A DNA stretch of 64,000 nt from an uncultured Candidatus Brevefilum sp. (GCA_964497065.1 CAZCBW010000004.1:40207-104206); one strand, 5' to 3'; numbered from the stretch's first letter, positions 613 through 47,566 are shown. The notes: generated from the sequence alone by a model not told the origin. Translations and numbers: made by a program.

Positions 613-713
613 GTAACTGCTCAGGCTGCCTTGTAAATGAAAGGTCGGGGGTGTGGTGTGGCGGCAAAGCCGCCACACCACACCCCCTGTTTTCTCATAA
701 GCTAAGTAGTTAC
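613..713 (+). mobile_element. MITE copy 1 (101 bp)
   Basis: Termini GTAACTGCTCAG / CTAAGTAGTTAC. Central 19-bp perfect hairpin (647-665 / 669-687). Flanked by the 8-bp direct repeat CATAAACC (605-612, 714-721). Confidence 0.9.
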
Positions 714-735
714 CATAAACCTTAATGATTTGGAA

Positions 736-1707
736 TTAAAATTTTTCTGTCAAATCCATGCCTTCATACAGCGACATTACTTCTGCTGCATAGCCGTTCA
801 TGAATAAGGTTTCCTGGCGGCCAGATTCACCTATCCGGCGTTCAGTTGCCTGTGACCAGCGGGAGTGTTTCACTTCGGGATTGACATTGGCATAGAACCC
901 GTATTCCTGCGGGGCAATCACATTCCACAGGGTGGGGGGTTCTTCGGCTGTCAGCGTGATAGATACGATGGATTTGATGCTCTTGAAGCCGTATTTCCAG
1001 GGGACAACCAATCGAATAGGTGCCCCGTTTTGAGGTGCGAGCGGTTCGTTGTACAGTCCGGTTGCCAAAATGGTGAGATCGTGCATGGCTTCATCCAGCC
1101 GTAACCCTTCAACATAAGGAAAAGGAAACATGCCAGTCTCGGCATTATTCATCTGGTCGGGGACCAATGCAGTGGTGAAAGCAACATACCTGGCTTCAGT
1201 TGTAGGTTTGACCTCATCCAGCAGTTCATGGAGTGGAAAACCAACCCAGGGGATCACCATCGACCAGCCTTCCACACAGCGTATCCGGTAGATACGCTCT
1301 TGCTGTTCAAACCTACCCAGGATATCTTCAAGAGTGAATGTGCGTGGGTTTTCAACCAGCCCATTGACTTCAACAGCCCAGGGGCTGGTGACGAAATTCT
1401 CAGCCAGTTGTGCCACCCTGCCCTTATCCGTAGTGAATTCATAATAATTACAGTAGTTGAGGATTGCTTCGTAGGTGGTGAGCGGGTTATCCAATTCGTC
1501 TGTGCGGCCGTTGGGTAATTCACCCCCGGCATCTGGTTCATGCTGAACATTTGTGCCAGGTGCACAGCCAGCCAGTATCGCACCCAGGCCAATGACCCCC
1601 ATTTGTTTTAAGAACTGGCGGCGGTTTTGGTAAATATGTTTAGGTGTAACTTCGTCCGGTTGGATTGGGATAGATTGGTGATTTATATTGTCCATCGTAT
1701 GCTCCAT
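736..1707 (-). CDS. msrP: Protein-methionine-sulfoxide reductase catalytic molybdoenzyme subunit MsrP (YedY), Tat signal with lipobox
   Basis: RRQFLK Tat motif and LAGC lipobox. Also NYYEF, RIRCVEGWSMVIPW, NGAPIRLVVPWKYGFKSIKSI, YGFYANVNP and WSQATER motifs. Start may be a few codons downstream. Confidence 0.95.
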   Translation of the reverse strand: MEHTMDNINHQSIPIQPDEVTPKHIYQNRRQFLKQMGVIGLGAILAGCAPGTNVQHEPDAGGELPNGRTDELDNPLTTYEAILNYCNYYEFTTDKGRVAQLAENFVTSPWAVEVNGLVENPRTFTLEDILGRFEQQERIYRIRCVEGWSMVIPWVGFPLHELLDEVKPTTEARYVAFTTALVPDQMNNAETGMFPFPYVEGLRLDEAMHDLTILATGLYNEPLAPQNGAPIRLVVPWKYGFKSIKSIVSITLTAEEPPTLWNVIAPQEYGFYANVNPEVKHSRWSQATERRIGESGRQETLFMNGYAAEVMSLYEGMDLTEKF

Positions 1708-1737
1708 TTTGTAATATTTCTGGGAGGCAAGTTCTGT

Positions 1738-2151
1738 TTAAGGCTCAAGGATCAATGGCAGGCCGGATTCATGCCAGTTGAGAATCCCGCCGACCAAGTT
1801 TTTGACATTGGTATAACCCTGATTGATCAACACCTCTGCCGCAAGAGCAGATTTATTGCCGCTTCTGCAATAAAGCACGATTTCGGCATCTTTGTCTGGG
1901 GGCAGAATGTCAAGGTTGTTCTCGAGCTGATTAAAGGGAATCTGGTGATCTGTGGTGGGGATATTTGCAAGGTGGAAATCAAGTGTGTTAACCAATAAAA
2001 AAGAGTCTCTACGTTCGTTCATCATCCCAGCCAGCGTTTCGACGGAGATATCTTCATAGGCAGCGGCGACAACAGGTGGGTTTCCTGCTGATGAGCAGCC
2101 TGCCAAAGCCAAGCTGACCATGAGAACCGCAATGATTAAATATCTTTTCAC
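1738..2151 (-). CDS. Rhodanese-like domain lipoprotein
   Basis: Signal peptide with LAGC lipobox; IVLYCRSGNKS active-site loop; NLVGGILNW. Confidence 0.85.
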   Translation of the reverse strand: MKRYLIIAVLMVSLALAGCSSAGNPPVVAAAYEDISVETLAGMMNERRDSFLLVNTLDFHLANIPTTDHQIPFNQLENNLDILPPDKDAEIVLYCRSGNKSALAAEVLINQGYTNVKNLVGGILNWHESGLPLILEP

Positions 2152-2333
2152 ACAACCTCCTAAACTTGAAACTGGTTAAATTCTACCATTTGCACCTGAA
2201 TTGTATAGATATTGTCTAACGCTTTAAATAGGCGATAATAAATCAGGTGATCTGGATATTACTTCAACAGGAGCTTACAGGGTGATCATCGTGCTATAAT
2301 GAGCGTACTTTATTGATCCTCTAGCCACCTAAT

Positions 2334-45425: not shown

Positions 45426-45498
45426 CTCCTCGACCTGGACTCGAACCAGGAACCTAGCGGTTAACAGCCGCTCGCTCTGCCAATTGAGCTATCGAGGA
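45426..45498 (-). tRNA. tRNA-Asn (anticodon GTT)
   Basis: Minus strand TCCTCGATAGCTCAATTGGCAGAGCGAGCGGCTGTTAACCGCTAGGTTCCTGGTTCGAGTCCAGGTCGAGGAG folds as a cloverleaf. Confidence 0.95.
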
Positions 45499-45575
45499 AG
45501 ACGAAGGTTATTATACGGATAAAGGGGGTAGGTGTCAAGCTAACTTTGGAGAGGCTGATGATCATCAGCAGCCTC

Positions 45576-46757
45576 TTATGTTTTTGCTGGGAGTGTAAAA
45601 TGGAACCGAGTACCCTTACCAATCCCATCACTTTCTGCCCAGATCTCACCCCCATGTGCTTGAATTAATTTTTTTGTGATCGTCAAACCAATCCCGCTAC
45701 CACCGGCTTCACGTGATCGAGATGGATCGACTCTGAAAAACCGTGAGAATATATGCGACAGATGTTCTTTTGGTATGCCGCTACCCGTATCACCGACAGT
45801 AATCTGGATGTATTGTTTTTCTTTACGGGCTTTGATCCACACGCGCTCCCTCTGTGGTGTGAAAGCCAGGGCATTGCTCAATAAATTGATGATTATCTGG
45901 TTCAATCGACCTGGATCTGCCAGGACGATGATGTGATTCTCACTCTGGTGATGTTCTAAAGCAACCCCCTTGATAGCAAACGCTGGCCGCATTATTTTTA
46001 ATAGATCTTTGATGAGTTCATTCACATTGACAGGTTGGAAAGATAACGATATCGTCCCGCTTTCAATGGTGGTTAATTGCTGCAAGTCATCAAGCAGTCC
46101 TTCCAGGCGAAGAGTTTGCCGGTGAATACTTTCAAAGGTCTTCTGGTCAGCCCCTAAGATGCCATCAGCCAGACCTTCCATTGAGCCTTTGATAACAGTG
46201 AGAGGCGTCCGAAGTTCGTGGGCAACATCAGCAATTAATTGTTGCCGCATTTGCTCGGTTTCTTTTAATTGTTTTCCCATCCGGTTAAAACGATCAGCCA
46301 GGTAGGAAATCTCATCTCGAGAGGTGTCCTCTTGTGTGTTTCTCAGGGGTAACTGTACATCAAAATCACCACCAGCAATCCGATCGGCTGCATCACTCAT
46401 TTGCTGAAGGGGTTTTACGAAAAGACGGCTCATCATTAGGCTGATCACAGCAGCTACCAGCAAGGCAATCGCGCTTGCTTCAAGGATCGATTGCCAGATG
46501 ATTTGGTTGAAGATCCGGAACAGACTGGTGTAAAGCCTGGAGCCTTCCATCATCCTGCCGTGTTGAGATCCCATCATATTGCCTCGTTCGATTCCATATT
46601 CTGAAAACAGGGTCGCCATGGCTGAGGAGCGCCCCTCGAAAGCAAAAGGGATCGAGACCTGGATCACCAGGCTTAATACAATCAGGCCGATCAGGATCAC
46701 GAAAAAATAGGAGAGGAAGAATTTCCAGTAGAGCTTTGATCGAATCAAACGTCTCAT
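45576..46757 (-). CDS. HAMP-domain sensor histidine kinase (BaeS-like)
   Basis: Two TM segments with a short Met-rich loop; DEI..LA..FNRM (HAMP); DVAHELRTPL; NLLSNA; DTGSGI; IFSRFFRVD.SRSR..GGSGIGL. Confidence 0.93.
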   Translation of the reverse strand: MRRLIRSKLYWKFFLSYFFVILIGLIVLSLVIQVSIPFAFEGRSSAMATLFSEYGIERGNMMGSQHGRMMEGSRLYTSLFRIFNQIIWQSILEASAIALLVAAVISLMMSRLFVKPLQQMSDAADRIAGGDFDVQLPLRNTQEDTSRDEISYLADRFNRMGKQLKETEQMRQQLIADVAHELRTPLTVIKGSMEGLADGILGADQKTFESIHRQTLRLEGLLDDLQQLTTIESGTISLSFQPVNVNELIKDLLKIMRPAFAIKGVALEHHQSENHIIVLADPGRLNQIIINLLSNALAFTPQRERVWIKARKEKQYIQITVGDTGSGIPKEHLSHIFSRFFRVDPSRSREAGGSGIGLTITKKLIQAHGGEIWAESDGIGKGTRFHFTLPAKT

Positions 46758-47437
46758 ATTAAACGCTCATCATCGAAGCGGTAGCCAACGCCCCAAATAG
46801 TGGTGATATATCGTTCTCCTATTTTCTTGCGGATATGGCTGATGTGCACGTCTACCACGCGGGTATCTCCGAAATAATTCTCATTCCACACTTCCGCTAA
46901 TAATTGATCTCGGCTTAGTACTTGTCCGGCAGAATTCATCAGCCGTCTTAATAACTCAAATTCCATGGTGGTTAGATCCAATAGTTCATCATGTAACCAT
47001 ACCTGGCGGCTGCCCGCATCTAGACGGATGTGTTTAAATTGCATGATTTGATTTGGATTAACTTTTTCAGAAGAGCTTAAACGCCTGACGGCAGCATTGA
47101 CCCGGGCAACCATTTCGCGAGGTGAAAAGGGCTTTGTTACGTAATCATCAGCGCCCATATTTAATCCAACAATCTTATCAACTTCTTCGGTTTTTGCAGT
47201 CATCATGATGATATAGACATCGGATTCACGTCTGAGCGCAGAGAGCACTTCTAAGCCACTTAATGTTGGCAGCATAATATCTAACAGAATTAAATCTGGC
47301 TTGAAGGCTCTGGCTGATTTTATCGCAGCAGTCCCATCTCCTGATTGGAATACTTTATATCCTTCCCTTTCAAGATAGGCTGAAACCAAATTCCGGATGT
47401 CTTCCTCATCATCAACGATCAGTATTCTTTTTCCCAT
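46754..47437 (-). CDS. OmpR/PhoB-family response regulator
   Basis: ILIVDDE, LLDIMLP, GADDYVTKPFS, LTTMEFELL, RVVDVHISHIRKK and TIWGVGYRF motifs. Confidence 0.95.
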   Translation of the reverse strand: MGKRILIVDDEEDIRNLVSAYLEREGYKVFQSGDGTAAIKSARAFKPDLILLDIMLPTLSGLEVLSALRRESDVYIIMMTAKTEEVDKIVGLNMGADDYVTKPFSPREMVARVNAAVRRLSSSEKVNPNQIMQFKHIRLDAGSRQVWLHDELLDLTTMEFELLRRLMNSAGQVLSRDQLLAEVWNENYFGDTRVVDVHISHIRKKIGERYITTIWGVGYRFDDERLI

Positions 47438-47465
47438 TTTTTAGATTCTCAAATCATGAATTTTC

Positions 47466-47566
47466 GTAACTACTCAGGTTGCACTACAACTAAAAGGTCG
47501 GGGGTATTGTGTGGCGGCGGAGCCGCCACACAATACCCCCTATTTCTCCATTAGCTGAGTAGTAAC
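47466..47566 (+). mobile_element. MITE copy 4 (101 bp, variant hairpin)
   Basis: Termini GTAACTACTCAG / CTGAGTAGTAAC. Hairpin GGGGGTATTGTGTGGCGGC-GGA-GCCGCCACACAATACCCCC. Perfect 8-bp flanking repeat GAATTTTC (47458-47465, 47567-47574). Confidence 0.9.

Follow-up and report, generated by a model that had tools for sequence, protein, structure and literature searches.

The 64,000-nucleotide stretch of DNA analysed here (GCA_964497065.1, CAZCBW010000004.1:40207-104206), referred to as the window over its whole length, carries five copies of a short, non-coding element bounded by terminal inverted repeats (TIRs), a miniature transposon whose probable descent from insertion sequences (ISs) of the ISBst12 group and whose central hairpin are the subject of this report (Table 1). 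All five copies are intergenic: copy 1 lies 23 bp past the stop codon of a minus-strand molybdopterin oxidoreductase gene (736-1707), copy 2 lies 65 bp after the stop codon of sfsA, copy 3 separates pyrH from a tRNA-Arg gene, copy 4 is located 29 bp upstream of the start codon of a response regulator, and copy 5 sits between znuB and frr, the four long-form copies being found 23-164 bp beyond the 3' end of a gene. These four long copies, with their positions and orientations, had been proposed in the original prediction, drawn from the sequence alone, and direct reading of the sequences confirms every one of them; the short copy was overlooked at that stage and was found by a TIR search of the window.

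Table 1. Positions of the five element copies in the window, with their hairpins and flanking 8-mers
Copy	Form	Position	Strand	Length (bp)	Hairpin	Loop	Left 8-mer	Right 8-mer	Flank match
1	long	613-713	+	101	647-687	AAA	CATAAACC (605-612)	CATAAACC (714-721)	8/8
2	long	17539-17639	-	101	17565-17605	AAA (element orientation)	CAATTATT (17531-17538)	CAATTGTT (17640-17647)	7/8
3	long	31691-31791	+	101	31725-31765	TTC	GATTAATT (31683-31690)	GATTAATT (31792-31799)	8/8
4	long	47466-47566	+	101	47500-47540	GGA	GAATTTTC (47458-47465)	GAATTTTC (47567-47574)	8/8
5	short	41915-41968	+	54	none		CAATTATA (41907-41914)	AAATTATA (41969-41976)	7/8

The four long copies all display the predicted TIRs of the GTAACT(G/A)CTCAG type. 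More precisely, their left end reads GTAACTGCTCAG in three cases and GTAACTACTCAG in one, and their right end, taken as reverse complement, reads GTAACTACTTAG twice, GTACCTACTCTG and GTTACTACTCAG, with one or two differences from the same 12-mer, the subterminal sequence of the arms being GGCTGCCTTGTAAATG... and ...TCTCATAAGCT. As also predicted, each long copy is flanked by an 8-bp target-site duplication (TSD) of its own, perfect in three of them and matching at seven positions in copy 2, and each holds a 19-bp stem with a 3-nt loop that is perfectly paired in 4/4 copies, the loops differing between copies and two pairs of copy 4 being compensated (G:C to A:T and G:C to T:A). Copy 5 (GTAATTGCTCAC...CTGAGTAATTAC) has the same ends and the same right arm, the latter being 85% identical to that of copy 1. 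Within the window, the TIR pattern is matched 15 times, compared to 4.7 expected, and the hairpin core four times, compared to 0.01 expected, and no stand-alone hairpin is found. No open reading frame (ORF) of at least 100 amino acids is contained in an element, the overlapping ORFs at 17493-17915 and 31314-31754 looking spurious. Finally, the window was said to lack a transposase, and indeed Pfam scans of its 56 ORFs detected no transposase domain and tblastn gave no match to an IS66-family transposase.

Metagenome contigs from JGI and ENA were scanned once with the hairpin pattern, which yielded 107 contigs, mostly from a few sediment-type samples, and, after boundary finding and removal of duplicates, 87 unique sites with full flanks. 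The TSD is 8/8 at 44 of these sites, 7/8 at 17 and 6/8 at 11, whereas permuted flanks give 0.4, 0.8 and 2.5, respectively; in other words, 61 of the 87 sites carry a 7-8/8 duplication when about one would be expected. Over 102 copies, the 12-bp ends, GTAACT(G/A)CTCAG and CTGAGTAGTTAC (end type GTAACTRCTCAG), differ from the consensus by 4.5-5.7% per site. The TSDs are 75% A+T, compared to 49.5% in the surrounding contigs, with a loose R-W6-Y target shape, and 94% of copies are intergenic. The copies of the family, all non-coding, measure 54-107 bp, most commonly 102 bp, and a variant shortened to 87 bp by a left-arm deletion is present at no fewer than five sites.

The prediction that the element would be abundant genome-wide is borne out by run X1, the host's own metagenome, in which the depths over the hairpin add up to about 3,470, compared to 45 and 29 on unique flanks. 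This depth ratio of about 77-fold, together with the 77 contigs placed on the hairpin, the longer ones being at host depth, suggests that the host genome contains roughly 70-80 copies. In the same line, Logan contigs from the source samples end inside elements, as a dispersed repeat would give. Taken together, the small size, the lack of coding capacity, the TIRs, the fixed-length TSDs, the many dispersed copies and the empty site described below identify the family as an abundant MITE (miniature inverted-repeat transposable element). The bare hairpin core also gave five matches in viral contigs, all of which correspond to a 10-bp palindrome in conserved coding sequence and are unrelated. As for the host, exact matches to window proteins come from metagenome assemblies only, and since the nearest named relatives of its PyrH (86-96% identity) are metagenome-assembled genomes (MAGs) of Brevefilum sp., Anaerolineales and Anaerolineaceae, it belongs to the class Anaerolineae of the Chloroflexota.

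Mobility is further supported by comparison of related loci. The spacer between pyrH and tRNA-Arg is devoid of the element in the closest relatives for which a pyrH contig exists, L127 (about 83% nucleotide identity) and L128 (76%), and, conversely, L093 carries a copy in an intergenic space that is free of the element between the orthologous genes of the window. The empty site with a single 8-mer through which the original prediction proposed to check transposition was seen for copy 3, next to a diverged spacer: in runs X5 and X6, which represent related strains about 96% identical, a contig matches the window over 31660-31690, up to and including a single GATTAATT, continues for 46 nt and then rejoins the window at 31846. 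This 46-nt spacer, which was rebuilt from two overlapping loose ends, agrees with window positions 31800-31845 at 25/46 sites in register 0 and at no more than 19 in other registers (shuffle mean 12.2, P=1.5e-4), and the net difference of 155 - 46 = 109 nt equals the 101-bp element plus one 8-bp target copy. X5 and X6 thus carry an exact empty allele of copy 3. For copies 1, 2, 4 and 5, no element-skipping contig was found in the related strains, where coverage is about 3x.

Two further observations concern these loci. In run X3, a 15.9-kb contig at host depth that corresponds to window positions 31498-31922 shows a pyrH 3' end that diverges at 18 of 136 nt and is followed by 112 other bases up to tRNA-Arg, beyond which the contig is identical to the window over 15.6 kb; it represents either a strain variant that lacks the element or a chimera formed at the tRNA gene. 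At sfsA, the window (17474-17660) and L033 (6960-7170), whose aligned blocks are about 67-73% identical, both have an identically oriented copy at 65-85 bp from the stop codon, on its downstream side, with similar TSDs (CAATTATT in the window and AAATTATC in L033), and synteny breaks exactly at the element, a DNA methylase gene following in the window and an epimerase-like gene in L033. The arrangement could mark either a hot spot for insertion or a rearrangement breakpoint associated with the element. Common ancestry of the two copies was considered and is less likely than separate origin, since each has the arms of its own genome's subfamily.

The ends of the element point to its parentage. 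ISDge4 of Deinococcus geothermalis, a member of the ISBst12 group of the IS66 family, encodes one transposase of 449 amino acids and has the TIRs GTGACTACTCAGCA and GTAACTGCTCAGCA with an 8-bp direct repeat (PMC12898284), and GTAA-type ends are also supported for the ISBst12 group/IS66 by another study (PMC11946415). Eight ISs of ISBst12 type, all of 1.45-1.63 kb with a single PF03050 ORF, were examined by sequence, namely ISGka4 of pHTA426 (TIR of GTAACTATTCAGCC type, GTAACTATTCAGCCC and GTATCTATTCAGCCC; TSD AACTCGTC, 8/8), a Bacillus thuringiensis IS (GTAACTACTCAGCT at both ends, forming perfect 14-bp TIRs; TSD 5/8), and six ISs with an 8/8 TSD: ISAva2 (GTAAGGATTCAGGT), a D. wulumuqiensis IS (GTAACTGCTCAGCA at both ends), an IS of the Chloroflexota member Ca. 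Chlorohelix (GTAACA(A/G)TTCAG), an Acaryochloris IS (GTTACTGCCCAGGCT) and two metagenomic ISs of 1,506 bp (GTAACTATTCAG(C/G)C) and 1,473 bp (GTAACTACACAGG). All eight share GTAAC..(T/A)CAG ends, and in seven the 8-bp TSD is perfect on one contig or more. The two ends of the element are 12/12 identical to the TIRs of the Deinococcus and Bacillus ISs, and the left end of one MITE subfamily, GTAACTACTCAGCCAGCC, shares 17/18 positions with that of one of the metagenomic ISs, whose transposase is 71% identical to that of Chlorohelix. ISBst12-type transposases do occur in Chloroflexota.

A full-length parent was also sought in the fetched loci. There, pairs of TIRs 250-4,000 bp apart turned out to be combinations of separate MITEs with no common TSD, a relaxed search for TIRs, TSD and ORF returned nothing credible, solo TIRs were truncated copies or contig ends (L053:4673 was checked by hand), and the ISGka4 transposase, used as tblastn query, had no match better than E = 1.3. 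Hundreds of Chlorohelix-type homologues are present in metagenomes, none of which could be linked to the host, the two multi-contig clusters examined coming from other samples. On the Deinococcus side, no related MITEs were found on D. radiodurans pCP1, and the SNR literature provided no link.

The family comes in two forms. A search of the fetched loci based on TIRs only revealed a 56-bp form, GTAACTGCTCAGGCAGCCCTGCTGCTGAAGGG-CG-CCCTCGCACGCTGAGTAGTTAC, at at least ten different sites, mostly with 7-8/8 duplications, along with hairpin-less copies of other sizes. The long form corresponds to the short one in which the central CG is replaced by T, a 20-bp stem, a 3-nt loop, a 20-bp stem and WATT, and the hairpin therefore stands at the apex of the AGGGCGCCCT palindrome of the short form. 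The family can hence be described as a minimal element of 54-56 bp and an element of 101-102 bp that contains in addition a GC-rich, perfect palindrome of 43-48 bp (19-20-bp stem, 3-nt loop). When ascertainment is corrected for by leaving out, at each locus, one canonical "trigger" copy, the hairpin-less and long forms occur in about equal numbers, and the canonical 23-nt core is kept in only 9 of 24 long copies (20 bystanders and the four of the window). Since hairpin-less forms transpose too, the hairpin is dispensable for transposition and represents an optional cargo, outside the transposition machinery.

The changes accumulated by the stem bear on how it remains paired. The stems of the 20 long bystander copies comprise 348 unchanged pairs, 30 with a one-sided change and seven compensated Watson-Crick pairs, without any double mismatch. 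Independent change of the two sides would give about 0.4 compensated pairs, and the seven are spread over six copies, at differing positions and of differing types. The one-sided changes of these bystanders show no preference for G:U (nine G:T + T:G, compared to 13 A:C + C:A). Besides, when read in a fixed arm orientation, the loop is GAA in 38 cases and its complement TTC in 32, and GGA/TCC and TTT/AAA are likewise encountered in both senses. One copy (L066:4303-4403) has lost the same 5 bp (GTGGT/ACCAC) from both arms and still forms a perfect 15-bp stem. The state of the loop agrees at 12 of the 13 sites assembled from two samples and is random among different sites whose arms are 0-2 nt apart (nine the same, seven flipped). 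Finally, 23 copies are in forward and 28 in reverse orientation relative to the upstream gene, and copies occur between divergent (18), tandem and convergent (8) gene pairs.

The excess of compensated pairs, the lack of G:U bias, the flipping loop, the mirrored deletion and the unbiased orientation all argue for a strand-symmetric process at the DNA level, and the pairing is therefore most likely kept mainly by such copying between arms, selection on an RNA being the less likely cause. Where inverted repeats undergo template switching, it is documented to homogenise arms, invert spacers and create compensated changes in one step (PMC8794818; PMC8604942), and it may be acting in this MITE hairpin. 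The candidates are switching of the replication template within the palindrome (quasipalindrome correction) and possibly gene conversion between copies; by either process, a change in one arm could be transferred to the opposite arm in a single step, and the loop could be inverted. The original prediction had left the choice between a hairpin under selection and one homogenised between its arms; the second term is favoured by the compensated excess, the similar numbers of G:U-type and A:C-type changes, the loop flips and the mirrored deletion, whereas it was not anticipated that the hairpin would be optional, nor that the stem would be conserved in sequence beyond what pairing needs. As a separate observation, one site with identical flanks and arms, assembled from two samples (L023:1728-1828 and L029:1452-1552), has opposite loops, TTC and GAA, which reflects either an in situ flip or a rare assembly chimera.

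In the light of these data, an IS of the ISBst12 group is likely to be both the ancestor of the family and its mobiliser in trans, the hairpin being optional and its pairing most likely maintained mainly at the DNA level. That the element is non-autonomous and moved in trans, as originally proposed, is consistent with the TSDs at 61 of 87 sites, the absence of coding capacity and of a nearby transposase, the empty allele and the ISBst12-like ends. Judging from these ends, the enzyme acting in the host would be of ISBst12 type; such a single DDE transposase (PF03050) would recognise the 12-18-bp ends GTAACT(G/A)CTCAG(G/C) and insert the element into AT-rich intergenic DNA of the loose R-W6-Y shape, giving the 8-bp duplication.

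Several points nevertheless weigh against this reading. No IS66-family or other transposase was detected in the window, and none in the contigs bearing the element, 687 kb in all, or at the ends of contigs. In GTDB genomes, a search with one 19-mer of the right end returned seven single matches, in unrelated taxa and invariably within coding sequence, a number expected by chance. It was mostly via the hairpin that the metagenome copies were found, the unbiased material consisting of stem positions 11-13, the bystander set and the window copies. The 46-nt spacer that adjoins the empty allele is just 54% identical to that of the window. Finally, template switching keeps the pairing but should not slow substitution, so that an extra process is needed to explain the stem.

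This last point deserves further attention, as the stem is conserved in its sequence, and not in its pairing alone, as strongly as the TIRs. Variable columns among the window copies amount to 18/36 in the inner arms, 5/24 in the TIRs and 4/38 in the stem (arms versus stem, Fisher P=2.8e-4), and the per-site difference from consensus among bystander copies is 13.9% in the inner arms, compared to 5.7% in both TIRs and stem. Candidates for this conservation are gene conversion between copies, limited to the identical 41-43-bp GC-rich palindrome, or element-level selection acting on the hairpin; conversion limited to the palindrome would flip loops too, because the palindrome aligns either way. 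Variant stems such as GTGAGG/CCTCAC are present at at least three sites, and the exact stem sequence is therefore not essential. A possible, albeit doubtful, extension is that the 43-48-bp palindrome is a sequence-conserved module, gained at the apex of the 56-bp MITE and preserved without change in diverged subfamilies and hosts, which either promotes the spread of the element or is homogenised by palindrome-limited conversion among the approximately 80 copies. If so, the flipping loop would offer a natural reporter through which template switching and ectopic conversion could be counted in a bacterium that is uncultured.

Alternatively, the hairpin could be kept by selection at the RNA or transcription level, as an intrinsic terminator, a stabiliser of mRNA 3' ends or an RNase III site, in which case the covariation would be of the classical kind. 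The strong conservation of the stem would fit with such a role, as would the location of all four long window copies beyond gene 3' ends, the T-tract that follows the hairpin in the window's subfamily, the fold of -30 to -46 kcal/mol with z-scores of -7 to -10, and the fact that copies 1 and 2 are the top terminator-like sites of the first 19 kb, copy 2 scoring on both strands. However, there is neither a wobble preference nor a strand bias among the one-sided changes, both loop orientations are about equally frequent, the orientation to the upstream gene is close to even, and divergent gene pairs harbour more copies than convergent ones. Moreover, the canonical core is lost in 15 of the 24 bystander and window copies, the GC-rich subfamily has no T-tract after the hairpin, and hairpin-less forms are about as common as hairpin-bearing ones, which leads us to regard RNA-level selection as unlikely. 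A local terminator effect is possible in the AT-rich subfamily of the window, judging from the T-tract, but termination is unlikely to be the general role of the family, given the GC-rich subfamily without T-tract and the unbiased orientation. Among RNA sequencing runs, none was found to contain the locus. In Rfam, only two tRNAs of the window reach the gathering score, the element giving generic hairpin matches of at most 27 bits for cut-offs of 38-120.

It has also to be considered whether the hairpin is a separate small mobile or exchangeable module that was inserted at the apex of the short MITE's palindrome and spreads between subfamilies, in the way that small dispersed repeats are reportedly nested in carrier elements of cyanobacteria (Elhai et al. 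2008). The exact replacement of the central CG by T, 43 nt and WATT at the apex of AGGGCGCCCT is suggestive of such an insertion, as is the contrast between a hairpin of 68-76% GC and surrounding arms of 35-43% GC; furthermore, the same hairpin is found in two host lineages with clearly diverged arms, each of which also has hairpin-less forms. Yet, among about 120 hairpin occurrences, none stands outside a MITE context, no lone hairpin exists in the window, and the identity of the hairpin across lineages is partly built in, because the hairpin served as query for the metagenome copies. To our knowledge, there is no enzyme that would move such a module, and we find this scenario quite unlikely. 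L024, the one apparent exception among these occurrences and at one point a candidate for a second family with the same hairpin, was rejected as a degenerate member of the present one.

Regarding the transposase, several IS families produce 8-bp duplications. One of them other than the ISBst12 group (e.g., ISL3, IS6, IS256 or IS1595) might thus mobilise the element, its likeness to ISBst12 ends being coincidental, and the fact that no cognate transposase was found in the DNA examined leaves some room for this. Nevertheless, such a coincidence is very improbable in view of ends that match the TIRs of two real ISBst12-group ISs at 12/12 positions and those of a third at 17/18, of GTAAC...CAG ends in all eight ISs of the group with perfect 8-bp TSDs in seven, and of ISBst12-type transposases known in Chloroflexota. 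Lastly, although GC-rich extragenic palindromes in many copies are also typical of REP/REPIN sequences moved by a RAYT (Y1 HUH) transposase, that assignment is almost certainly wrong, because 8-bp duplications and 12-bp TIRs bound a unit larger than the palindrome, the 5' end is GTAAC instead of the REP tag GTAG or CGTC, and the hairpin, always located within arms, is dispensable, hairpin-less copies being transposed as well.

Other features of the window are worth recording. A second, unrelated MITE-like element of 352 bp (14990-15341) is flanked by a perfect 9-bp duplication, CTGACCATC (14981-14989 and 15342-15350), and has the ends CAGGGCAATTGCAAAGTCA and, as reverse complement, TAGGGCAATCACAAAGTCA, an initial CAGGG being the TIR signature of the ISAs1 family; in run X2, its interior has about 2.5x the local depth, and a variant contig swaps 56 bp for 24 other bases. 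The gene for ribosomal protein S2 (29052-30188) encodes 378 amino acids with a C-terminal extension of about 130 residues, and since its coding sequence contains imperfect GAA/GAT-rich repeats, this tail is probably acidic. A protein of 1,637 amino acids (19359-24272) has right-handed beta-helix, NosD and DUF1565 domains, with internal DNA repeats of 114-177 nt, and genes for cohesin- and Big_9-domain proteins come next. At 37429-39024, DUF3048 is split between the ORFs 37429-37788, 37910-38182 and 38224-39024, which resemble tandem partial fragments, no element with TIRs and TSD being found between these pieces. From 48000 to 64000, where no copy of the element is present, the G+C content falls to 37-41% from 45-54%, and the genes concern the synthesis and export of envelope polysaccharide (glycosyltransferases, a PMT_2-type transferase, an epimerase and an ABC-2/Wzt exporter); among the large ORFs of this region, several are without a Pfam match (54496-57409, 60785-62368).

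As far as the searched literature shows, this would be the first MITE family described for Chloroflexota (class Anaerolineae) and for the ISBst12 group (IS66). Transposition in the IS66 family is poorly understood, and a 56-bp element with 12-18-bp ends would therefore be useful as a simple substrate. In practical terms, some 70-80 copies break short-read assemblies at predictable places, which matters for the binning and finishing of Anaerolineae MAGs. In addition, perfect pairing, compensated double changes and very low folding energies are observed here with no sign of selection on RNA, so that covariation alone may mislead in the case of DNA palindromes within multicopy elements.

Regarding novelty, no paper treating both MITEs and Anaerolineae was found, nor, in the papers checked, any description of a MITE derived from IS66 or ISBst12, and IS66 is absent from a review of prokaryotic MITEs published in 2024 (PMC10969869). 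The possibility, raised from the outset, that the element might match an already catalogued MITE was checked against Rfam and the searchable literature, ISfinder being outside the comparison, and no match emerged.

The ISBst12-group ISs resemble the element by their TIRs (GTAACTGCTCAG and GTAACTACTCAG in the element, GTAACTGCTCAGCA in the D. wulumuqiensis IS and ISDge4, GTAACTACTCAGCT in B. thuringiensis and GTAACTATTCAGCC in ISGka4), their 8-bp target duplication and their relatives in Chloroflexota, but their length is 1.45-1.63 kb and each codes for a DDE transposase (PF03050) of some 450-485 amino acids, whereas the element is non-coding, trans-dependent and 54-102 bp long; in addition, none of the eight ISs examined has a GC-rich hairpin at its ends. 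REP/REPIN sequences are characterised by a GTAG/CGTC tag and a single-copy RAYT gene, with neither TSDs nor GTAAC-type TIRs, while the element has both TSDs and TIRs. With quasipalindrome template switching, the hairpin has in common one-step compensated changes, homogenised arms, inverted loops or spacers and strand independence (PMC8794818; PMC8604942); that process is, however, a general mutational mechanism, which leaves the conservation of the stem sequence unexplained and whose action here would be deduced from the pattern in about 100 copies.

The element also resembles bacterial MITEs in general (Correia/NEMIS, ERIC, RUP, Nezha, MITEAba12 and others), which are likewise small, non-coding and multicopy, with TIRs and TSDs, AT-rich intergenic targets, empty and filled sites, the ends of a parent IS and stable folds (PMC3184786; PMC10969869). 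Nezha of cyanobacteria, for instance, measures 130-170 bp and has the TIR and direct repeat of ISNpu3 (PMC3184786), the present element being set apart from it by size, on the basis of the description only. What differs from these MITEs is the family of the parent IS and the existence of two transposing size classes distinguished only by a discrete and perfect palindrome of 43-48 bp. The MITE family is thus new, its kind is known, and its modular hairpin is unusual.

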